Shown piece by piece: positions 25,134 through 35,479 of a stretch of 64,000 bases of DNA. Each line of letters opens with the position of its first letter. Within the stretch, counting starts at the first letter, position 1. Below the pieces are notes generated by a model, which made no database searches, was not told the DNA's origin, and saw only the letters and a list, made by a program, of their open reading frames with translations. The stretch is taken from positions 204,072 through 268,071 of the forward strand of contig JBMORT010000002.1 of the NCBI GenBank assembly GCA_049319825.1, read 5' to 3'. The translations under genes and the position numbers were made by a program. This stretch comes from Patescibacteria group bacterium (GTDB lineage Bacteria; Patescibacteriota; Patescibacteriia; UBA11705; DATKZF01).

Positions 25134-25160
25134 AAGAAAGTTTGATTTTTACAGTTGGTG

Positions 25161-26486
25161 ATGATATTATTGAATAAATCAATAAAAAATATGACTCAAA
25201 CATTTATAAAAGATTTTAAAAATTTTAAAGACAAAGAGGTTTCAATCAAGGGCTGGGTTTATAACTTGCGCTCATCGGGCTCGATCATGTTTTTGCAGGT
25301 TCGCGACGGCTCCGGATTCGTGCAGGCGGTTGTTTCCAAAAAAGAAGTTGACGCCAAAGTATGGGAAGAAGCGAAAAAGATTACCACGGAAAGTTCCGTT
25401 GAATTGTCAGGCAAAGTAACCGAACATCCCAAGCAAAAAGGCGTTTTTGAATTGCAGGTTCTCGGCGTGAAAGTGATTCAAGTCGCGGCCGAATATCCGA
25501 TCGGCAAAAAAGAGCACGGCCCGGAGTTTTTATTGGATAATCGTCACCTGTGGCTCCGCTCTCCCAAGCAGTGGGCGGTCTTGCGCGTTCGCAACACGAT
25601 TATCAACGCGACTTACGAATATTTGAATAAAGAAGGATTTATAAAAGTCGACGCGCCGATTTTGACGCCCGTGTCATGCGAAGACACCACCACTTTGTTT
25701 GAAACGGATTATTTTGATTTGGGAAAAGCTTATTTGTCGCAATCGGGACAGCTTTATATTGAGGCCGCGATATTTTCGGTCGGACGCTGCTTTGACTTTG
25801 GTCCGACTTTCAGGGCGGAAAAGTCAAAGACTCGTCGACACTTGACCGAGTTTTGGATGATGGACGCGGAAGCCGCTTTTGTCGAACACGAAGAGAATAT
25901 GAAAATTCAGGAAGGGCTGATTTGCTTTATCATTAAAAAAGTCTTGGAGCAAAATCAATATGAGCTTGGCGTTTTGGAAAGAGATGTCGAGGCATTGAAG
26001 AAAATTAAAGCGCCATTCGGCCGGATGACTCACGCGGAAGCCGTTAAAAAGCTCCAGTCGCTCGGGTCAGACATTAAAAAAGACGATGACCTCGGCGCTG
26101 ATGACGAGACTTTGCTGACCAAAGAAAGCGCGGTGCCGATTTTCGTGGAGAAGTGGCCGGCGAAAATCAAAGCGTTTTACATGAAGATCGATCCGGAAAA
26201 CAATGACGTGGTGCTGGGCTCAGACCTGATCGCGCCCGAAGGCGCCGGAGAAATTATCGGCGGGTCTCAGCGCGAAGATGATTATGATTCATTGCTAAAG
26301 AGAATGAAAGCGCAGAAAATGCCGATCGAATCATTTCAGTGGTATCTTGACTTAAGAAAATACGGCTCAGTGCCGCACAGCGGCTTCGGCTATGGACTCG
26401 AAAGACTTGTTCGCTGGATCTGCGGCCTGCAGCATATCAGGGAAACTATACCTTTTCCGAGGATGATTAATCGGTTGACGCCGTAG
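25161..26486 (+). CDS. asnS: asparaginyl-tRNA synthetase
   Basis: class II core FRAEKSKTRRHLTEFWMMDAEAAF (E. coli AsnRS-like), C-terminal GSVPHSGFGYGLERL..IPFPR; start may be 25191. Confidence 0.85.
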   Translation: MILLNKSIKNMTQTFIKDFKNFKDKEVSIKGWVYNLRSSGSIMFLQVRDGSGFVQAVVSKKEVDAKVWEEAKKITTESSVELSGKVTEHPKQKGVFELQVLGVKVIQVAAEYPIGKKEHGPEFLLDNRHLWLRSPKQWAVLRVRNTIINATYEYLNKEGFIKVDAPILTPVSCEDTTTLFETDYFDLGKAYLSQSGQLYIEAAIFSVGRCFDFGPTFRAEKSKTRRHLTEFWMMDAEAAFVEHEENMKIQEGLICFIIKKVLEQNQYELGVLERDVEALKKIKAPFGRMTHAEAVKKLQSLGSDIKKDDDLGADDETLLTKESAVPIFVEKWPAKIKAFYMKIDPENNDVVLGSDLIAPEGAGEIIGGSQREDDYDSLLKRMKAQKMPIESFQWYLDLRKYGSVPHSGFGYGLERLVRWICGLQHIRETIPFPRMINRLTP

Positions 26487-26890: not shown

Positions 26891-27262
26891 ATGGAAAAAG
26901 AAGTGACAACCAATAAAATTTTGGAATTTTTGCAAGAGCATGGCGCGACCAAGGCTGATATTAAGATTTTGAAAGGGGAAATGGATGAAAAATTCGATGA
27001 GGTTAATTCAAGATTCGATGAGGTTAATTCAAGATTCGAGGGGGTTAATTCAAGATTGGATAGGATTGAGTCACAGATGGTCACTAAGGAATATTTAGAT
27101 GATAAGCTCGCTGATTTAAGGGGCGATCTTGTTATTCTGACGAGAAAAGAAGACGCGAAATTAATTGAATTGGTTAAAATATTGGGAAACAAACAAGTCC
27201 TTGCCGAAGACGAAGTAAAAAAAATTCTGGAAATGGAGCCTTTTCCTAAATTAAGCTTATAA
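26891..27262 (+). CDS. hypothetical coiled-coil protein containing in-frame 21-bp x3 tandem repeat (FDEVNSR)
   Basis: protein-like plus-strand ORF; minus-strand overlapping ORF judged shadow. Confidence 0.45.
   Translation: MEKEVTTNKILEFLQEHGATKADIKILKGEMDEKFDEVNSRFDEVNSRFEGVNSRLDRIESQMVTKEYLDDKLADLRGDLVILTRKEDAKLIELVKILGNKQVLAEDEVKKILEMEPFPKLSL
26983..27046 (+). repeat. 21-bp tandem repeat x3 inside CDS
   Basis: attcgatgaggttaattcaag x2 plus a variant third copy. Confidence 0.7.
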
Positions 27263-27368
27263 ATGTTTTTAATTTAAAAGTAAAAAGTAAAATGGAATTA
27301 TTTTAAAATGTCTCGGCCGGGGCGTTTTTTTGATTGAAAAATATGACCGGATGTGATATTTTGATAAT

Positions 27369-28517
27369 ATGAATAACGCTTTGCCGCAAATATTCAGTAA
27401 AAAATGGTTTCTGGGCATTCGCCGTGAAGAATCCTTATTTTTTTATTCGTCAAAGTTTATTGACCGGGAAAAATTTACCCTGAAAAAGTACGAAAATAAT
27501 TTTGTCGAGTCAATATTAATTCCTCATGAAGATAATGAGCTGATTCGTGCTTTCAATTCCGATCAAGCCAAGCTTTTTCATCAGGAGTCAAAGGAAAAGG
27601 TTCTAAAAGATTTTTCAATAATAGAAAAGTTCATCAGCCATGACGACACGTTATGGGTTGAAATCCAGAAGCTTTCAGAAAAGCTGGCCAAATCGGTTGA
27701 GAAGCTCGACTTCAAAAAAGCGAAAGGAATTTTTCAGCGCATTCTTGAAAAATACGGCGAGCATGGCGCGTATTTTTTCTTTATTTTCTCAGTGGGCATG
27801 ATGCTTGAGGGAAATAAAGAAGAAGTTGCAAACTCAAAGCCGGCTTTGGCCGCGCATGACAAATGGAGAAATGAGGTGGCATTTAAAGAAGAAAAAATGG
27901 GCGAAAACTTGTTTGGGTTTTTTAAATTACTAAAATCTCAAAGCGTTTTGAACACTGCGGAAAAAGAGATGATGGAATTTTTGACTGCCGGTGAAGTCTT
28001 GGCTTTGGCCAGTTGTCAGATAACGAAAGAAGAAATCGAAAATAAAATCGCGCGCCGGAAGCAAAATGGCTATGTCTATTTATATTTGAGGGATTTGCAG
28101 TATCAAGACGTGGTTATTGATGATCTTTCGACAGTTGAAGCTGTTAAAAAATATTTTGAGAGTATGGAAGCGCCGGCAGGCAAAGTGATCGAAGGCCAGG
28201 TCGCTTTCCCCGCGAAAGAGAAAATTATCGGCGAAGCTGTTGTTCTCAAAGATAAAAGCGAATTAGGAAAAGCGGATTTGGCGGGAAAAATTTTGGTCAC
28301 CATCCAAACCACGCCGCATTTTATTCCGTATTTAAAAAATGTTAAGGCGATAATCACCGACGAAGGCGGCATCACCTGCCACGCGGCGATTGTGGCCAGG
28401 GAGTTAAAAATACCGTGCGTCATTGGCACGAAAATTGCTACAAAGATTTTAAAAGATGGCGACAAAGTGGAGGTGGATGCGGAAAAAGGGGTGGTGAAAA
28501 TTATTAAGAATGTTTGA
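27369..28517 (+). CDS. PEP-utilizing-enzyme mobile (phosphohistidine swivel) domain protein with unique 290-aa N-terminal domain (paralog 1)
   Basis: C-terminal ILVT..TTP.F.P..K...[28 protein letters not shown] matches PpsA/PPDK central His domain. Confidence 0.7.
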   Translation: MNNALPQIFSKKWFLGIRREESLFFYSSKFIDREKFTLKKYENNFVESILIPHEDNELIRAFNSDQAKLFHQESKEKVLKDFSIIEKFISHDDTLWVEIQKLSEKLAKSVEKLDFKKAKGIFQRILEKYGEHGAYFFFIFSVGMMLEGNKEEVANSKPALAAHDKWRNEVAFKEEKMGENLFGFFKLLKSQSVLNTAEKEMMEFLTAGEVLALASCQITKEEIENKIARRKQNGYVYLYLRDLQYQDVVIDDLSTVEAVKKYFESMEAPAGKVIEGQVAFPAKEKIIGEAVVLKDKSELGKADLAGKILVTIQTTPHFIPYLKNVKAIITDEGGITCHAAIVARELKIPCVIGTKIATKILKDGDKVEVDAEKGVVKIIKNV

Positions 28518-28523
28518 AATTAT

Positions 28524-29618
28524 ATGTTAAATAAAAAGAAAAAATTAGTTTTTGAAAAATCAATTACTAGGGACTGGCCGCTTTTTATCGTACAAATGTT
28601 GCATAAAGGTTTTACAAAAGAATTTGAAAAACAATTTAAATTTAGATATTTAGAAGTTTTATTTGATTGTTTTTCTGACCATTTAGATATATATAGAGCA
28701 CCTATTGAACATATTGAGAAAATGAGAGCCTTTATTTTAAATAATCTGCGCAGAAATCCCAATTTCATAAGAGAGGTTGCTAAAAAGTTAATAGATTATT
28801 TTGAAAATTTTAAAGATATAATTCATGAAATTGATAATAAAAGTTTAGTTGTAACTTCAAATAAAGAATTGTCACAAATTATAAAAGCTTTTATTAAAGC
28901 ACATCAAGAGTTGGAACCTTGTTTTGTTATGATGTTTTGGTTTCCAATACAAATGGAAAATCATCAAAATAAAGAAAAATATAAGCCAGATATTGATATC
29001 GCGGCAAAAATGCGGGCAAAGACCGAGAAAGTTGGCCCAGAGGGTGATAGAATTGCTAGAAAACTTTCTGAAGAAGTCAGCAGAAGAATGTTTGGGAATA
29101 AGGATTTTGCCAAATTTATTTCTTTAAAAGAAACGCACGCTTTTTTAACAAAGAATAAAAAAGTTAATAAAAAGATTATTGAAAAAAGAAAAAAGGGTTT
29201 TATATACGGAGCTTTAGGAATTAAATATATAAAATTGTCAGACTATGCAAAACTTGAAGGGTTGGAAGTAAAAACAACATTAGCAGACATAAACAATAAT
29301 TACATTAAAGGTTCAATTGCTTACAAAGGATATGTGAAAGGTAAAGTGAGAATTATTATATCAAAGAAAAATATTAAAACCCTGAAAAATGGTGAAATTT
29401 TGGTCACCGCAATGACAACACCTGAATTTGTCCCAGCAATGAAAAAAGCGGCGGCAATTATTACAGATGAAGGCGGCATCACCTGCCACGCGGCGATTGT
29501 CGCTAGAGAATTGAAAATTCCGTGCGTGATCGGCACTAAGGTCGCCACCAAAGTGCTAAAGGATGGCGACCAAGTAGAGGTTGACGCGACCAAGGGGATT
29601 GTCAGGATTTTAAAATAA
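28524..29618 (+). CDS. PEP-utilizing-enzyme mobile domain protein with different N-terminal domain (paralog 2)
   Basis: same C-terminal swivel domain; 32-nt stretch identical at DNA level to paralog 1. Confidence 0.7.
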
Positions 29619-29750
29619 TTTTTATAGAATATTATGGAACGCATGATGTATGTCCCAGGCATGGAAATATTAGGTATCAATAGCGAGTACTTTACAAGTA
29701 ATATATATTATTGTAAGATACACAATGATTGTTATTAATCCTACAATAAT

Positions 29751-31571
29751 ATGCTTGATAAATTATTCAATTCAAAAACCCGCGTGGCTGTTTTAGGCTT
29801 ATTTTTCAATGATGAAGACAAAAAATCTTATATCCAGGAAATCATCAAATCAGCGAAGACAGACGCGGCCAATACTCATCGCGAATTGGATAAGCTTGAA
29901 AAGCTCGGCATTCTAAAGAGCAAAAAACAGGGCAACCAAAAATATTATTTTTTAAATAAAGACAATGCTTACTTCGAAGCTTTGAAAAGGTTGTTCGCGG
30001 TTTACCGCCGGAAAGACGATGGCTGGTACCTGCTCGAAGAAATTCCCAATGGCACTCCCACCTTTGTGGCTGATGTCTGCAATTCCAAGCTGTCAGTGGA
30101 ATGGAATGAGAAAAAAGGCTTCAAATATCCTCCCACGGATTTTCTGACCATCTACCGGAACGGCGTGGCCAGCATTTACTTTGTAAAATCTCAATTCGAT
30201 AAATACAGCCGCAGCATGCTGGACGGCTTTATCGCCGATCCCGCTTCTTTGCACAAAGTGAATGAAGAAATCATCAAGCAGTCGGACAGCTTGCGCGCTT
30301 ATTCACAAAAAGTATCTGCCATGAATCTGAAAATATTGGACGACAAAGAGCTGGGCAGTGTATTTTCTAATTTTTATAGAGAATATGAGCGCACTCATAT
30401 GTGGGCCTGGCCGCATACTGCGCCTGACTTTGGCGAAGCGTATTTATCCAAGTATTCTTTCGCGTATCTTAATGAGCGGCTGAAAAAAACCGGTAAAAAT
30501 TATTCGGTTGGCGAGATTTTCTCCAAGCTGACTTCGCCGACAGAGGAAAGCAATGCCCAAAAAGAATATCGCGACTTGCTTGCGATTTTGGATTATATTT
30601 TAAAGGAGAAATCATTGAGCCAATACTTTGCTGAAACCGAAACCCGCTTTATCCTGCGCGACCTGATGAAAAAAAATGAAAAGGCCTGGCAGATGATCGT
30701 CAATCATACTGATAAGTACGGCTGGCTGGGCTATGGCCTGATCGGCCCTGGCTGGAGCGAAGAGTACTTTATTGATATTTTGTGCAGCTTGATCAGGCAG
30801 CAAAGCGATCCGCAAAAGCTTTTGGCCAAAATCGAAGCTGAGAGGAAGGAATTGGCAAAGGAGCAGGAAAATATTTTCCAAGAGCTAAAAATTGACGACA
30901 GGAATCGAGAATTCTTTATCGGCGCCAAAGGCCTGGTCTTCACCAAGGGTTATCGAAAAGATTCATTATTCTACTTTTTCAGCGTGCTGGAAAATATTCT
31001 CAATGAATTGTGCAGAAGATACTATTTGTCAATGAACCAGGCGCGAATGCTCTTCCCGCATGAGATCGAAGATATATTAGGCGGCCAAAGCTTTGACTTC
31101 TCGGTTTTGAATGACAGGCAGAAATTATGCGCGCACTATTCAGCCGGACGCACCGATTATTGGAATGACACCATTGTAATCGGCGCTGAAGCGGAGAAAT
31201 TGATCAATAAGCTGCAATTCATTGAAGAAGACATTTCTGATATTAAAATTTTGAACGGCGAATGCGCCTCGCCCGGCAAATCCAGGGGCCGGGCCGTGAT
31301 TGTCAATGTCACGAAGGACATGCAGAAAATGAAAGACGGCGATATCTTGATTTCCATTGCCACCAATCCTGACCTGGTGCCGGCCATCAAGCGCGCCTCA
31401 GCCATTGTCACTGATGTGGGCGGGATCACCTGCCATGCGGCCATTATTTCCCGCGAGCTGGGAGTGCCCTGCGTCATTGGCACGAAATACTCGACCAAAG
31501 TGCTCAAAGACGGGGATATCATCGAAGTCGATGCCACGCACGGCAAAGTGACTATTATTAAAAGAGCGTAA
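29751..31571 (+). CDS. wHTH plus large middle domain plus PEP-utilizing-enzyme mobile domain protein (paralog 3)
   Basis: N-terminal ArsR-like wHTH, ~420-aa middle region, C-terminal [22 protein letters not shown]. Confidence 0.7.
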   Translation: MLDKLFNSKTRVAVLGLFFNDEDKKSYIQEIIKSAKTDAANTHRELDKLEKLGILKSKKQGNQKYYFLNKDNAYFEALKRLFAVYRRKDDGWYLLEEIPNGTPTFVADVCNSKLSVEWNEKKGFKYPPTDFLTIYRNGVASIYFVKSQFDKYSRSMLDGFIADPASLHKVNEEIIKQSDSLRAYSQKVSAMNLKILDDKELGSVFSNFYREYERTHMWAWPHTAPDFGEAYLSKYSFAYLNERLKKTGKNYSVGEIFSKLTSPTEESNAQKEYRDLLAILDYILKEKSLSQYFAETETRFILRDLMKKNEKAWQMIVNHTDKYGWLGYGLIGPGWSEEYFIDILCSLIRQQSDPQKLLAKIEAERKELAKEQENIFQELKIDDRNREFFIGAKGLVFTKGYRKDSLFYFFSVLENILNELCRRYYLSMNQARMLFPHEIEDILGGQSFDFSVLNDRQKLCAHYSAGRTDYWNDTIVIGAEAEKLINKLQFIEEDISDIKILNGECASPGKSRGRAVIVNVTKDMQKMKDGDILISIATNPDLVPAIKRASAIVTDVGGITCHAAIISRELGVPCVIGTKYSTKVLKDGDIIEVDATHGKVTIIKRA

Positions 31572-31575
31572 AAAT

Positions 31576-32514
31576 ATGTTCACAAAAATTTTCAAGGAAT
31601 TAAACTATAAAAGCGTCGACATCGCCGGCGGCAAAGGAGCTTCGCTGGGAGAAATGACTCGGGCCGGCATTCCGATTCCTCCCGGATACGTTGTTTTGGC
31701 CGGAGCTTTTGATAAATTTTTGGAAGAAACGGATTTAAATGTGGAAATAAAGGCTGTGATCGACGAGGTTAATTACGAAGACGTGAAATCAGTTGACGTA
31801 GCGTCGAGCAAAATCAGAGATTTAATCGCTGATGCGGATTTTCCGGCAGATATTGCCGGCGAAGTCCAAGAAGAATTCAAAAAATTGGGCGCTGAATACG
31901 TGGCGGTGCGAAGTTCAGCCACGGCTGAAGATTCTTCGATCGCTTCCTGGGCCGGCGAGCTGGAAAGTTATTTGAATGTTAAAGAAAAAGGCCTGCTTGA
32001 CGCAGTGAAAAAATGCTGGTCGTCTTTATTTACTCCGCGGGCGATTTTTTACCGCAAAGAAAAAGGATTGATCGACAGCAAGGTTTCAGTCGCGGTGGTG
32101 ATTCAAAAAATGGTCAATAGTGAAATTGCCGGCATTACCTTTACAGTTCATCCGGTGACCAAGGATCCGAATCAAATAATCATTGAAGCCGGATTCGGTC
32201 TGGGCGAGGCGATAGTTTCCGGCAGTATTACCCCCGATAGCTATGTGATTGAAAAAGATACCTGGAATATCATTGATATCAATGTGGCAGAGCAGGAGCG
32301 CCAGCTGGTTCGCGTGCCGGCCGGCGGCAACGTTTGGAAGGAGCTGCCTGCAACTAAGAAAGAAAAGCAAAAATTGACCGGCGAGCAAGTGGTTGAATTG
32401 GCACAATTATGCTATGACATTGAAAAGCACTATAATTTCCCGTGCGATATTGAGTGGGCGTTTGATGCCGGCAAGTTTTATATAACGCAGTCAAGGCCGA
32501 TAACGACTTTGTGA
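31576..32514 (+). CDS. stand-alone PEP synthase / pyruvate phosphate dikinase N-terminal ATP-grasp (PPDK_N) domain protein
   Basis: GGKGASLGEM, VRSSATAED, DIEWA..GKFYITQSRP motifs align with E. coli PpsA N-terminal 320 aa; no His or TIM-barrel domain in this ORF. Confidence 0.75.
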   Translation: MFTKIFKELNYKSVDIAGGKGASLGEMTRAGIPIPPGYVVLAGAFDKFLEETDLNVEIKAVIDEVNYEDVKSVDVASSKIRDLIADADFPADIAGEVQEEFKKLGAEYVAVRSSATAEDSSIASWAGELESYLNVKEKGLLDAVKKCWSSLFTPRAIFYRKEKGLIDSKVSVAVVIQKMVNSEIAGITFTVHPVTKDPNQIIIEAGFGLGEAIVSGSITPDSYVIEKDTWNIIDINVAEQERQLVRVPAGGNVWKELPATKKEKQKLTGEQVVELAQLCYDIEKHYNFPCDIEWAFDAGKFYITQSRPITTL

Positions 32515-32550
32515 AGGCAGTAGGCAAGAGGCAATAGGCAGTAGGTAAAT

Positions 32551-32572
32551 CGGCGCACGGCGCCGGTTTTTT
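32551..32572 (+). terminator. terminator CGGCGC-acg-GCGCCG + T6
   Basis: follows ATP-grasp gene and AGGCRAT heptamer array. Confidence 0.55.
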
Positions 32573-32574
32573 AA

Positions 32575-32603
32575 TTGACAGAATTCAGGTATTGATTTAA
32601 TAT
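32575..32603 (+). promoter_or_regulatory. sigma70-type promoter TTGACA-17-TAATAT
   Basis: consensus -35, good -10, 40 nt upstream of AGGAGG RBS. Confidence 0.5.
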
Positions 32604-32642
32604 GAAGTGTTGTTGTCGGCCGAGCAAAAAAGGAGGAGAGAT

Positions 32643-33278
32643 TTGGCAATCAACGGCTATAAAAAAATCGAAGCCCGGGTGGAAAGAATCAAAGAGTGGT
32701 TCAGGCTTCACGGCTTTGAAATTGAGGTTCCTTTTCCGAGGAGCGAAAACGGATTTCAAATCGAGATTCCTTTTCCGGGGATTAAAAGCCAATTTCAATC
32801 TTTCAATGCCCAATACGCGTTGAGACAAGAGAATGGCTGGGAGCTTTTTTACCGGCCGTCGAGCAGGGAAGTTTCGTATTTCGAATTTTTGGCGGAAGTT
32901 GGACAGAAATTTCATTGGACAACGAGAATCGGTGTTCGAAAAAGCATCAATTGGACATGGACGCAAAGCGGCTATTGGTTCTGGGCGCAAATTTGTCCTG
33001 CCGCGCCCGTTTTTGGCAAATGCGAAGACGTGGTGCCGGCGCGTTGCCAGGAAAATCAGCGGCCGCCGAGCATTGAAGAATATTTGCTGATGTATCATTT
33101 GCACCGATGCGATACTGGCCGCAAGCTGGATCACAATCCCGCGGTTTGGCTGACGACCAAGCTCCGCGGACACGCGCTGAGCGCGCTCGGCGATTGCGGC
33201 GGCATCAATGTCGGCATTGCCGACAATTTCACGCCCAACCCCGGCTGTGGCTTGCGCTTGGTGAAAGTGATCGGTTGA
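32643..33278 (+). CDS. hypothetical Trp-rich protein
   Basis: TTG start 6 nt after AGGAGG; internal repeat GF(E/Q)IE(V/I)PFP; minus-strand 260-aa ORF over same region rejected. Confidence 0.45.
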   Translation: MAINGYKKIEARVERIKEWFRLHGFEIEVPFPRSENGFQIEIPFPGIKSQFQSFNAQYALRQENGWELFYRPSSREVSYFEFLAEVGQKFHWTTRIGVRKSINWTWTQSGYWFWAQICPAAPVFGKCEDVVPARCQENQRPPSIEEYLLMYHLHRCDTGRKLDHNPAVWLTTKLRGHALSALGDCGGINVGIADNFTPNPGCGLRLVKVIG

Positions 33279-33445
33279 TTTTACCCTGTTTTCATAAAGC
33301 GGGGTTTTTTGTTTTGTCGAAGTGGCCGGACAAAAATTAATTGATATTCGCAAAGAAATAGTGTGATTTTTCGCGTGTTGTCGAATGTGGAAAACATTTT
33401 ATTCGATTTTTTGATACCCCTCGGGTTATGATGAAAATATAATTT

Positions 33446-33979
33446 ATGATTTATAAAGAATCAAAACAATATCGTTTACCCGGTTATAATTACGCCAATG
33501 ATGGATTTTATTTTGTGACGATTTGCGCCCAGAACATGCGAATGTTTTTTGGGAACGTTGTCAACGGCCAAATGATTTTGTCAAAAATCGGAAAAATCGC
33601 CAATCAATATTGGCTCGAAATTCCCAAACATTTTCCGCATGCGCGGTTGCATGAATACATTGTTATGCCGCACCATGTCCATGGAATTTTGGAGTTGCGA
33701 ACCCGTGTTGTTGTAGGAACGCGCCATGGCGCGTTCTTACAACAAAATTCCATGGGCATGCATCCATTGGTCAGGAATTCGTTGTCATCAATCCTCAACC
33801 ATTTCAAGGGGGCAGTGAAAAAATGGTGCAATCGAAACAATCATGGAAATTTTGCCTGGATGTCACGATTTCGCGATACAGTTATTTTGCATGAAAACGC
33901 ATTATACAACTTCCGCAAATACATCATTAACAACCCGTCAAATTGGGAATTGAAGAAAAACAATCCTGATTTGATGTAA
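33446..33979 (+). CDS. REP-associated tyrosine transposase (RAYT) / IS200-like HUH Y1 transposase
   Basis: YR.PG..YFVT N-terminus, HUH motif PHHVHGIL, C-terminal RFRD..I.....Y....YI.NNP, matching E. coli RayT pattern. Confidence 0.7.
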   Translation: MIYKESKQYRLPGYNYANDGFYFVTICAQNMRMFFGNVVNGQMILSKIGKIANQYWLEIPKHFPHARLHEYIVMPHHVHGILELRTRVVVGTRHGAFLQQNSMGMHPLVRNSLSSILNHFKGAVKKWCNRNNHGNFAWMSRFRDTVILHENALYNFRKYIINNPSNWELKKNNPDLM

Positions 33980-33995
33980 TATAATATCAAAATTC

Positions 33996-34019
33996 ATCGC
34001 GCTTGCCGCGATTTTTTTT
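33996..34019 (+). terminator. terminator ATCGCG-cttgc-CGCGAT + T8
   Basis: follows RAYT stop. Confidence 0.55.
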
Positions 34020-34132
34020 ATTTTTGAAGAATGAATCAGGGGTGCGTCAATATATTTGAAAAACCGGTGCCGATGCTGTATAATTATTGTAATAATTATT
34101 GATATTATTAATTATTTTTTATTTAAAAAAAT

Positions 34133-35479
34133 ATGGACAGAACGCTCAATTTGGAGGTAGTCAATAAAAAAGGAGAGGAAGTGATGATCGAAGGCTGGGT
34201 CGATGGCCGCAGAAACATGGGAAAAATCGTGTTTCTCGACATGCGCGACCGCACCGGAGTTCTGCAGGTCGTTTTGGTGCCCGGCGAGCTCGATAAAGAT
34301 TCCCAAAAACTGATTGATAACATCAGGCCGCAATTCGTATTGGCGATTGAAGGCATCGTTAACGAGCGGACAGGCAAAAACGCCAATCCGCAGATGGAGA
34401 CCGGCACAGTGGAAGTGCTGGCTAAAAAAATCACGGTTTTGGCCGAGGCGGAAACGCTGCCTTACGAGCTTGGTTCGGAAATGAAAATGGATACGTACCT
34501 CGATAACGCGCCGCTCAATTATCGAGATGAAAAAGCAAGAGCGATTTTTAAAGTGCAGGCCGCGTTGATACAGGGTTTTAGGAGCTTTTTAACGGCCGAA
34601 GGTTTTACCGAATTCCAGGCGCCCAAGCTGGTGGCCGAGGCCACTGAAGGCGGCGCCAATGTTTTCAAAATCGATTATTTCGGCAAAGCCGCTTATCTGG
34701 GCCAGAGTCCGCAATTTTACAAACAAATTATGACCGGCGTCTATGAGCGGGTTTTCACCTGCGGAAACGTTTATCGGGCGGAAGCGCATCACACATCACG
34801 GCATATTAATGAATATACCTCGCTTGATTTTGAAATGGGATTTATCAAAGATCATACGGATGTGATGGACATGACTCGCAGAGCTTTGACGGCAATGATG
34901 AATAACGTGGTTAAAAATTGCGATAAGCAAATCAAACTTCTTGATGCGGCCGTGCCCGAAGTGCCGGCGGAGATTCCGGCCTTGAAATTGGCCGAAGCGC
35001 AGAAAATTTTAAAGCATGAATTCGGCCAGGACTGCGAAGGCGAGCCGGATCTCGAGCCGCACCATGAAGAATTGATCTGCCAGTATGCCAAGCGGGAATT
35101 TAATTCTGATTTTATTTTCATCACTCATTATCCGGTCGAAAAAAGGCCGATGTACACCATGCCTGATGAAAAGGATAAGGGAAAGACCAAAAGCTTTGAC
35201 CTGCTTTTCCGCGGCTGCGAAATAGTGACCGGCGGTCAGCGTATCCATGACTATGAAATGCTGCTTGATAATATTAAAAAATTTAAAATGGATCCCCAGG
35301 ACTTTGAATTTTATTTAGAGGCGTTCAAATACGGCATGCCGCCCGAAGGCGGGATCGGCATGGGGCTGGAGCGGGTGACCCAAAAACTGCTTGGCCTGGA
35401 AAATATCAAGCAGGCCACGCTGTTTCCGCGCGATGATGTAAGGATAGATTTGCCTTTAAGTAAAGAAAATAACAAATAA
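34133..35479 (+). CDS. aspS: aspartyl-tRNA synthetase, archaeal/eukaryal type (likely non-discriminating)
   Basis: class II core YRAEAHHTSRHINEYTSLDFEM; C-terminal GMGLERV...LFPRD..RI.P. Confidence 0.8.
   Translation: MDRTLNLEVVNKKGEEVMIEGWVDGRRNMGKIVFLDMRDRTGVLQVVLVPGELDKDSQKLIDNIRPQFVLAIEGIVNERTGKNANPQMETGTVEVLAKKITVLAEAETLPYELGSEMKMDTYLDNAPLNYRDEKARAIFKVQAALIQGFRSFLTAEGFTEFQAPKLVAEATEGGANVFKIDYFGKAAYLGQSPQFYKQIMTGVYERVFTCGNVYRAEAHHTSRHINEYTSLDFEMGFIKDHTDVMDMTRRALTAMMNNVVKNCDKQIKLLDAAVPEVPAEIPALKLAEAQKILKHEFGQDCEGEPDLEPHHEELICQYAKREFNSDFIFITHYPVEKRPMYTMPDEKDKGKTKSFDLLFRGCEIVTGGQRIHDYEMLLDNIKKFKMDPQDFEFYLEAFKYGMPPEGGIGMGLERVTQKLLGLENIKQATLFPRDDVRIDLPLSKENNK

Follow-up and report, generated by a model that had tools for sequence, protein, structure and literature searches.

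A stretch of 64,000 nucleotides from an ultra-small bacterium of the Patescibacteria group (GenBank assembly GCA_049319825.1, contig JBMORT010000002.1, positions 204,072 to 268,071 of the forward strand), called the window below and representing the part of the 384,691-bp contig that was read, contains four adjacent genes, P1 to P4, whose products carry the domains of an ATP-dependent phosphotransfer system distributed over separate polypeptides. All four open reading frames (ORFs) are on the + strand and are intact, without internal stops. P1 (27369-28517) encodes a protein of 382 residues, with a short substrate module (residues 1-271) resembling the rifampin-binding domain (RIF-BD) of rifampin phosphotransferase (RPH) and a C-terminal histidine swivel domain (residues 272-382). 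P2 (28524-29618; 364 residues) has a short substrate module at residues 1-255 and a swivel at residues 256-364. P3 (29751-31571; 606 residues) starts with a predicted winged helix (residues 1-88), followed by a long RIF-BD-like domain (residues 89-496) and a swivel (residues 497-606). P4 (31576-32514; 312 residues) is a complete stand-alone ATP-grasp protein and the proposed phosphoryl donor for H338 of P1, H322 of P2 and H562 of P3. The initial annotation, made from the window alone, had the direction, coordinates and lengths of the four genes right and gave the gaps as 3-132 nt; they are 6 nt (P1-P2), 132 nt (P2-P3) and 4 nt (P3-P4). A terminator-like hairpin at the end of the upstream gene (27305-27328, +; from a pattern scan and sequence reading) marks the putative 5′ boundary of the operon. 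It is followed by a weak promoter-like site, TTGAAA-17-TATTTT with a TG extension (27334-27362, +), recognized by consensus scan only and located 7 nt 5′ of the P1 start. An intrinsic-terminator-like hairpin with a T-run (32547-32569, +; 10 bp, 6 of them GC) lies 33 nt past the P4 stop and marks the putative 3′ boundary. The small gaps, the single strand, the flanking hairpins and the retention of the arrangement in other genomes predict that the four genes are co-transcribed. The deposited annotation of the window proteins is 'PEP-utilizing enzyme' (PEP, phosphoenolpyruvate); P1 and P3 are found at 100% identity in the protein database, and the exact P2 sequence is not among the matches listed.

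The C-terminal domains of P1, P2 and P3 are phosphohistidine swivels of the PEP synthase type, just as the initial annotation had proposed. Pfam places PF00391 at residues 306-374 of P1 (E 2e-25), 288-358 of P2 (E 4e-28) and 528-598 of P3 (E 8e-23), and the P3 swivel matches the structure 8a8e with an E-value of 2e-30. The three domains are 47-55% identical to each other over about 130 C-terminal residues and share the catalytic-histidine motif GGITCHAAI(V/I)(A/S)RE, with the histidine codons at 28380-28382 (P1), 29487-29489 (P2) and 31434-31436 (P3), all on the + strand. In six frames the whole window encodes exactly three swivel domains and one ATP-grasp domain. The PEP/pyruvate-binding TIM barrel, whose absence from the window had also been noted from the sequence, is indeed missing: PF02896 was not found in P1-P4 by Pfam, and a phmmer search with the Escherichia coli PpsA TIM barrel against all six-frame segments of the window gave nothing (best E 0.13).

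P4 consists of the PEP-synthase-type ATP-grasp domain and nothing else, as first described; PF01326 spans residues 15-311 (E 2e-97) and Pfam finds no other domain. The protein aligns end to end with the crystal construct of the ATP-grasp domain of Listeria RPH (5HV6, to residue 327 of the tagged chain), with residues 8-316 of full-length RPH (5FBS) and also with the 387-residue chain 9goj. P4 and the RPH construct end at the same QSRPITTL boundary. In the alignment, K20, R112, S131 and E293 of P4 correspond to K22, R117, T136 and E297 of RPH, which contact nucleotide or Mg as established by mutagenesis or structure (PMC4844700). The orthologue of P4 in a syntenic relative (locus L005, see below) is 84% identical. 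By sequence, P4 is a complete module rather than a fragment. It is thus a stand-alone PPDK_N subunit with the ATP-contact residues, as in two-component dikinases, and P1-P3 supply the partner, an RPH-like substrate-binding domain followed by a C-terminal histidine swivel.

The N-terminal regions of P1, P2 and P3 had been considered unrelated to one another, and a BLAST comparison among them gives nothing significant. Profile comparison and structure models lead to a different conclusion. Once the swivel is left out, hhalign matches the profile of the P2 family to that of the P3 family with a probability of 95.8% (E 7e-9), residues 17-132 of P2 aligning with residues 101-217 of P3, while the P1 and P2 profiles match only marginally (probability 35%). 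The AF2 models are confident, and RPH is the only whole-chain structural match for the P1 and P3 models, the superposition extending far past the swivel domain. Matches to the swivel only, such as the pyruvate kinase C-domain, Enzyme I and PPDK, mostly align about 100-108 residues. In Foldseek, the top hits for P1 are six RPH structures, with E-values of 5e-9 to 8e-8 but low TM-scores of 0.34-0.37. The N-domains, which have conserved charged residues (R18, E20, E21, K173, E174 and E175 in P1; K399, R402, E419 and R423 in P3), superpose on the RPH ligand-binding domain, and homologues of P2 are 39-59% identical. As judged from the models and profiles, a single fold has diverged to give the three N-terminal regions.

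The domain logic is therefore that of RPH, an ATP-grasp domain, a substrate domain and a histidine swivel, in split form; here the domain content, the P4-RPH alignment and the P1 and P3 models bear out what had been read from the sequence. RPH (5FBS/5HV1; PMC4844700) and the PRK06241-type 'PEP synthase-like' proteins have the same three-part logic as P1-P4 and would use the same mechanism, the swivel mechanism worked out for RPH (PMC4844700). However, RPH is a single chain of 865 residues in which ATP-grasp (G), substrate-binding (B) and swivel (S) domains follow in the order G-B-S, whereas P1-P4 are separate genes arranged as (B-S)x3 and then G, and the substrate domains of P1 and P2 are about 40% shorter than the RIF-BD. 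Against the RPH models NF041857 and NF000283 (cut-offs 999 and 1700 bits), the scores are 66-86 bits for P1-P3 and 286 bits for P4, so that none belongs to those families. In sequence, the ATP-grasp and swivel domains are closest to those of PEP synthase, the GGxTCHAAIxxRE motif is of the PEP synthase type, and the PEP synthase model NF005057 is the best NCBIfam match for all four proteins. All scores are well under the cut-offs, and without PF02896 the proteins fall outside PEP synthase (TIGR01418 / NF005057). PEP synthase, PPDK and Enzyme I have a TIM barrel and a central swivel, whereas P1-P3 have no TIM barrel, a C-terminal swivel and a substrate domain of a different fold.

The closest precedents are PpsAB (phenylphosphate synthase), CreHI and HpeHI, the characterized two-component RPH homologues with 1:1 stoichiometry of subunits, in which an ATP-grasp subunit of about 40 kDa charges the swivel histidine of a substrate subunit of about 70 kDa in a transient complex (PMC12167813). 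For HpeHI, phosphotransfer in trans through such a complex, with production of AMP, has been demonstrated, and HpeH, CreH and PpsA are about 45% identical in pairs (PMC12167813). P1-P4 share with them a separate ATP-grasp subunit (HpeI about 40 kDa, P4 35 kDa), an RPH-like subunit with a histidine swivel, neighbouring genes with the swivel subunit first, and a histidine in a GGxx[S/C]H motif. The differences are considerable. The ratio is 1:3 in P1-P4, and up to 1:7 or fused as G-(B-S)n in related loci. The H subunits of about 70 kDa contrast with patescibacterial mini-modules of 340-390 residues (P1 and P2, about 360-380) and with proteins of about 600 residues fused to a winged helix-turn-helix (wHTH). 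The known enzymes act on phenolics in the aromatic catabolism of Proteobacteria and Actinobacteria, whereas P1-P4 are found in Patescibacteria with no aromatic-catabolism genes nearby, and the P1-P4 cluster has no CBS-type third subunit. The NCBIfam models PRK08296.x, which describe swivel-ending proteins of about 600 residues, match P1-P3 over the swivel only, suggesting that P1-P3 form a clade separate from the HpeH, CreH and PpsA subunits. The split of the ATP-grasp from the swivel and substrate subunit thus has precedent, and the one-to-many logic is what differs.

The one-to-many layout is found in many relatives. A scan of species-representative genomes by alignment to P4 returned more than 580 relatives, and the best 80 loci (58-68% identical; numbered with the prefix L) were analysed with domain calls from hidden Markov models built from the alignments of this analysis. 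Almost all are from Patescibacteria metagenome-assembled genomes (MAGs), and a few are labelled archaeal. Clusters around the homologues of P1, P2 and P3 contain several genes ending in PF00391 and one PPDK_N gene of about 312-332 residues. The ATP-grasp gene stands alone (about 312 residues) in 62 of the 80 loci and is fused to swivel-ending modules in the other 18. Zero to seven swivel-ending genes lie near a stand-alone ATP-grasp gene, none of them on the opposite strand. If only those loci are counted that extend 9 kb or more to either side, at least one swivel-ending gene is present in 23 of 25, and most have three to five. Their products fall into size classes of 340-390, 440-530 and 590-635 residues. 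The relaxed catalytic-histidine motif is present in at least 186 of 203 swivel domains, and the failures that were inspected retain the histidine as well.

The fusions include G-S (13 loci), G-S-S (2), S-G-S-S (1), G-Sx4 (1) and G-Sx5 (1). In an exhaustive search of representative sequences, most of the nearest relatives of P4 (56-66% identical) form the N-terminus of longer proteins (500-1836 residues) with one, two or three swivels and no TIM barrel; P0051, P0086 and P0056 are G-S-S, and P0064 is a G-S-S-S protein of 1836 residues. P0026 (859 residues) consists of an ATP-grasp domain, a P3-like middle domain (38% identical) and a swivel, and is colinear with the single-chain model NF004879 over residues 3-848, yet under every curated cut-off. 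All swivels inspected in the fusions retain the histidine. Together with the 1:n layout, the series from G-S to G-Sx5 gives sequence-based backing to the earlier proposal that one ATP module is shared by several substrate and swivel modules. The giant ORFs are L028:9995-17161 (2388 residues, G-Sx4), L072:9989-17041 (2350 residues, G-Sx5) and L073:247-6230 (at least 1994 residues, S-G-S-S). All three are in MAGs labelled, as recorded, archaeon or Woesearchaeota, which suggests transfer between the candidate phyla radiation (CPR) and DPANN accompanied by fusion. A different fusion is encoded in a related cluster at L006:9283-10548, where a protein of 421 residues combines an HATPase_c/MORC-S5 (GHKL ATPase) domain with a PF00391 swivel; it might be an alternative ATP-using donor. 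Searches of the available literature on PEP-utilizer and swivel proteins in Patescibacteria, CPR and DPANN found nothing relevant, and the one-to-many, multi-histidine fused architecture is widespread and apparently undescribed.

The N-domains of the 80 loci, 180 in total, form about 39 families. The N-domain of P3 is a member of F0, a large family of long domains; that of P2 is in F3 (7 loci), and that of P1 in F6 (5 loci). Inside one locus, paralogous N-domains share no more than 30% identity or cannot be aligned, and family combinations are repeated from genome to genome, indicating that the arrays are old sets of distinct specificities rather than recent tandem duplicates. On these grounds the idea of hypervariable cassettes was rejected; the modules are old paralogues. 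The swivels are about 52% identical across families and genomes, and this conservation, while the N-domains diverge, fits a shared docking partner. Each swivel of the window is nearest to those that follow an N-domain of its own family in other genomes (0.67-0.79), whereas P1, P2 and P3 have swivels only 0.52-0.60 identical to each other. Cross-family swivel identity is 0.538 within a locus versus 0.515 between loci, an excess too slight for wholesale concerted evolution.

A stretch of 32 nt that is identical near the 3′ ends of P1 and P2 had been taken as a sign of recent duplication or gene conversion. The identity was confirmed by exact-match search (28362-28393 = 29469-29500, +); it covers codons for a run of 10 or 11 residues of the catalytic loop. 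The reading is not supported, since the 32-mer recurs with two or three mismatches in swivel-ending genes of L005, L026, L032 and L052, the DNA of the swivel regions is only 71% identical between P1 and P2 and 61-62% between the other pairs, and the nearest swivels are orthologues elsewhere. Identical codons are used at 27 of 56 shared residues. The match appears best explained by constraint on the catalytic loop; a short conversion tract is the alternative. P2 is a mosaic in composition, with a GC content of 0.275 (third codon positions, GC3, 0.21) in the N-terminal part and 0.41 (GC3 0.43) in the swivel part.

Clearer traces of recombination come from L005, which has the gene order TrmB, AsnRS-like (92% identical), DUF2196, P1-like (67%), the ATP-grasp gene (84%), AspRS-like (87%) and ScpA, and is without P2 and P3. 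Because it has only the P1-like gene with the ATP-grasp gene, the P4 orthologue would serve a P1-type partner there. Compared with positions 28380-28530 and 31434-31584 of the window, the P1-like gene (8001-9149 of L005) tracks P1 to about 30 nt before the stop (33 of 46 positions versus 22 of 46 for P3), and then its last 29 or so coding nucleotides are of the P3 type (27 of 29 versus 15 of 29 for P1). The encoded tail is DATHGKVTIIK, and DATHG is a hallmark of the P3 family (24 of 26 members) missing in other members of the P1 family. This sequence is most simply read as the outcome of a recombination between the homologous swivel 3′ ends of P1 and P3 that removed P2 and P3 from the L005 lineage, with conversion of the tail as the alternative. 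The chimera indicates that swivel-coding 3′ ends do recombine and that modules are lost or exchanged in this way.

P3 differs from P1 and P2 in its predicted N-terminal winged helix of the ArsR/MarR type (residues 1-88, 29751-30014). All 16 swivel-ending proteins of 590-634 residues in the 80 loci begin with a winged helix of the P3 type, and the genes of the 602-608-residue subclass lie 11-76 nt upstream of the ATP-grasp gene in six of eight cases. In a PADLOC search of anti-phage defence families, P1, P2 and P4 have no match and only the wHTH of P3 shows a resemblance, to those of PDC-M05A and Csa3. The 132-nt P2-P3 spacer contains a promoter-like sequence, TTTACA-17-TAAGAT (29691-29719, +), and two inverted repeats that overlap it. 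The repeat I4 has its arms at 29687-29697 / 29711-29721; the 15-nt arms of I3 (29705-29719 / 29738-29752) are 93% complementary, and the right arm reaches the ATG of P3. Both contain the same half-sites as a palindrome, ATTGTA-N5-7-TACAAT, which flanks a TTGACA -35 box upstream of P3 homologues in several species. The shorter pattern TTGTA-N3-22-TACAA occurs 34 times in 1.38 Mb, nine times within 150 nt upstream of P3-class genes, and precedes 6 of 21 P3-class genes versus 1 of 223 other ATP-grasp or swivel-ending genes. The region 29687-29752 is therefore a candidate operator for the P3 winged helix, and the palindromes suggest that P3 autoregulates its own promoter. Trigger enzymes with fused DNA-binding domains, such as BirA and NadR, are known. 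P3 resembles them, by analogy only, in the fusion of a winged helix to an enzyme module and in the palindromes at its own promoter; the enzyme parts are not homologous, and DNA binding by P3 is predicted.

With a probability of about 0.7, P1-P4 constitute a small-molecule dikinase that is split and has several heads, related in type to RPH and the two-component enzymes, in which P4 charges each of P1-P3 and each of these phosphorylates its own substrate. In this mechanism, the ATP-grasp domain of P4 would bind ATP, the swivel of P1, P2 or P3 would dock transiently on P4, and H338, H322 or H562 would take the β-phosphate, leaving AMP and Pi. The charged swivel would then return to its own RIF-BD-like N-domain and pass the phosphate to the substrate bound there. 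Three substrates would be phosphorylated from one ATP-charging subunit, and they are expected to be different because each N-domain comes from a separate family of old origin. The P3 winged helix probably binds the palindromes overlapping its own promoter, a trigger-enzyme arrangement. We infer phosphotransfer from P4 to all three partners, the dikinase chemistry, the small-molecule nature of the substrates and the binding to DNA from the domains, models and gene arrangements described above.

Several observations weigh against this reading. A sequence-level relationship between the middle domain of P3 and the RIF-BD was considered and rejected, since neither a phmmer search with residues 90-500 of P3 nor its 11-sequence family profile (A6) found a match in the PDB. 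With the swivel removed, the middle domains of P1-P3 have no HMMER-detectable similarity to the RIF-BD. It follows that the long alignments from HMMER and NCBIfam start from the swivel and merely extend out of it, and the relation to the RIF-BD rests on fold and architecture. The equivalents of the catalytic Arg666 and Glu667 of RPH are residues that can be mapped in P1-P3 only by residue-level structural alignment. Twelve of the 62 stand-alone ATP-grasp genes have no swivel-ending gene in the surrounding sequence examined, and a P3-like gene in L001 has no adjacent ATP-grasp gene, so the genes need not be clustered. The 80 loci comprise only the closest relatives and are linked by phylogeny rather than independent, and the count of one ATP-grasp domain covers the 64-kb window, a further one being possible elsewhere in the genome.

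Other explanations account for parts of the data. P4 could charge P1-P3 in a signalling or regulatory phosphorelay, with proteins as acceptors or with DNA binding by P3 under control as in the phosphotransferase system (PTS), small molecules remaining unmodified. The wHTH of P3 and of all 16 proteins of its class, the palindromes at their promoters and the GHKL/MORC-swivel fusion in L006 are in its favour. So is the threonine two positions before the catalytic histidine, at which PEP synthase and PPDK are regulated by phosphorylation (PMC12167813) and which the swivel motif keeps; among 186 swivel domains of L010-L089 the residue is Thr in 144, Leu in 25 and another in 17, and all five swivels of L072 are without the Thr. 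However, P1 and P2 lack any domain for interaction with DNA or proteins, the N-domains superpose on the RPH ligand-binding domain with conserved charged residues, histidine-phosphatase-like and HAD-like genes in related clusters fit phospho-metabolites, and the characterized relatives RPH, PpsAB, CreHI, HpeHI and PigC/RedH all act on small molecules (PMC4844700, PMC12167813). A phosphorelay is thus unlikely. The protein-kinase role offered in the initial annotation is possible but gains no support here. It is also quite unlikely that P4 pairs with P3 only, as a 1:1 two-component dikinase, while P1 and P2 have another donor or are inactive. The position of P3-type genes 11-76 nt upstream of the ATP-grasp gene in six of eight cases, the existence of a fusion of an ATP-grasp with a P3-like domain and the promoter-like region of P3 itself would agree with such a pair, but the 84% identical ATP-grasp protein of L005 is paired with a P1-type gene alone. 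The catalytic motifs of P1 and P2 are intact and the proteins are conserved across species, no other ATP-grasp or TIM-barrel donor is encoded within the window, and the fusion of one ATP-grasp with up to five swivel domains in a single polypeptide amounts to one-to-many use.

Operation in the ATP-forming direction, as with PPDK in anaerobes, with phospho-metabolites, AMP and Pi giving ATP as energy salvage in a fermentative cell of reduced genome, is very improbable. PPDK is reversible and the PEP synthase model NF005057 is the best match for all four swivel and ATP-grasp proteins, but water-dikinase reactions, which yield AMP and Pi, are strongly exergonic toward phosphorylation. We know of no candidate high-energy donor, there is no TIM-barrel PEP site in the window, and HpeHI makes AMP (PMC12167813). 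The chance that the four genes are decayed fragments of ppsA or RPH-like genes is negligible. The best NCBIfam matches are indeed PEP synthase models, far under their cut-offs, as pseudogene debris might give. Against this, the ORFs are unbroken and stop precisely where domains end, the catalytic residues are conserved, other species have full-length orthologues, the ATP-grasp protein has its length of about 312 residues in 62 of 80 loci, AF2 gives confident models, P4 is followed by a terminator-like hairpin, and a TIM barrel has left no remnant in any frame, which rules out the ppsA fragment. The multi-headed small-molecule dikinase accounts best for the whole arrangement.

In the window, as in L005, the cluster is bracketed by two class-II aminoacyl-tRNA synthetase genes of the AsnRS/AspRS type (PF00152 and PF01336) at 25155-26486 and 34133-35479. 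Just 5′ of P1 lies an ORF of 123 residues (26891-27262) with three 21-nt tandem repeats (27001-27073) encoding heptads of the DEVNSRF type; it has no family match, and no called gene of L005 corresponds to it. The region of about 1.6 kb between P4 and the AspRS-like gene (32515-34132) is missing from L005. It contains an ORF of 223 residues without a family match (32607-33278), overlapped by an antisense ORF of 260 residues, a 39-nt tandem repeat in two copies (32710-32787) and an ORF of 177 residues (33446-33979) with a weak match to REP-associated tyrosine transposases (NF047646, E 1.5e-10, under the cut-off), and is possibly the remnant of a mobile element. Inside related clusters, phosphatase-like genes recur (L002:2576-4142, L003:1364-3069, L007:15434-15886; 9 + 6 + 4 loci), comprising two families of about 300 residues with RHG-type histidine-phosphatase motifs, HAD-like hydrolases and a low-molecular-weight phosphatase, none of which is in the window. 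Genes of the PrgI/TraC/TraG type (type-IV-secretion-like) lie directly downstream of the cluster at L002:11360-14379 and L003:11297-14319, and a membrane protein of about 140 residues and a protein of about 500 residues recur beside clusters in 10-11 loci.

Close relatives differ in which modules they have, the composition of P2 is foreign, an ORF resembling a transposase adjoins the cluster, and histidine-phosphatase-like and HAD-like genes recur in related clusters. These features suggest an accessory metabolism, for example one that scavenges or inactivates compounds from the host or the environment, rather than a core function. More generally, Patescibacteria and some DPANN-labelled MAGs may have a multi-headed dikinase platform, for and against which we consider the odds about even. 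In such a platform one ATP-grasp unit would serve from one to seven or more heads, each with a gene of its own or joined in giant G-(B-S)n proteins of up to about 2400 residues, the heads would be gained and lost by recombination of swivel ends, and those with a wHTH would be substrate-sensing autoregulators.

Two-component dikinases have been recognized recently, and only as 1:1 enzymes of phenolic catabolism; the arrays described here are one-to-many, with up to seven heads, and the fusions have up to five catalytic histidines. The system offers a natural setting in which to learn how a single ATP-grasp domain recognizes many swivel partners, P1 and P2 (about 40 kDa) are defined small proteins for substrate discovery, and the chimeric junction in L005 provides a concrete recombination route for the turnover of modules. 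Patescibacteria have genomes of about 1 Mb that have otherwise shed metabolism. That up to about 10 kb is given to such arrays implies that a set of phosphorylated metabolites is important to these episymbionts, and these metabolites could serve nutrient capture, detoxification or antibiotic inactivation. If the multi-headed platform is real, it would be a previously unrecognized, lineage-wide way for symbionts with reduced genomes to phosphorylate many different small molecules of the host or the environment, and thereby to trap, activate or inactivate them, at the cost of one ATP module.

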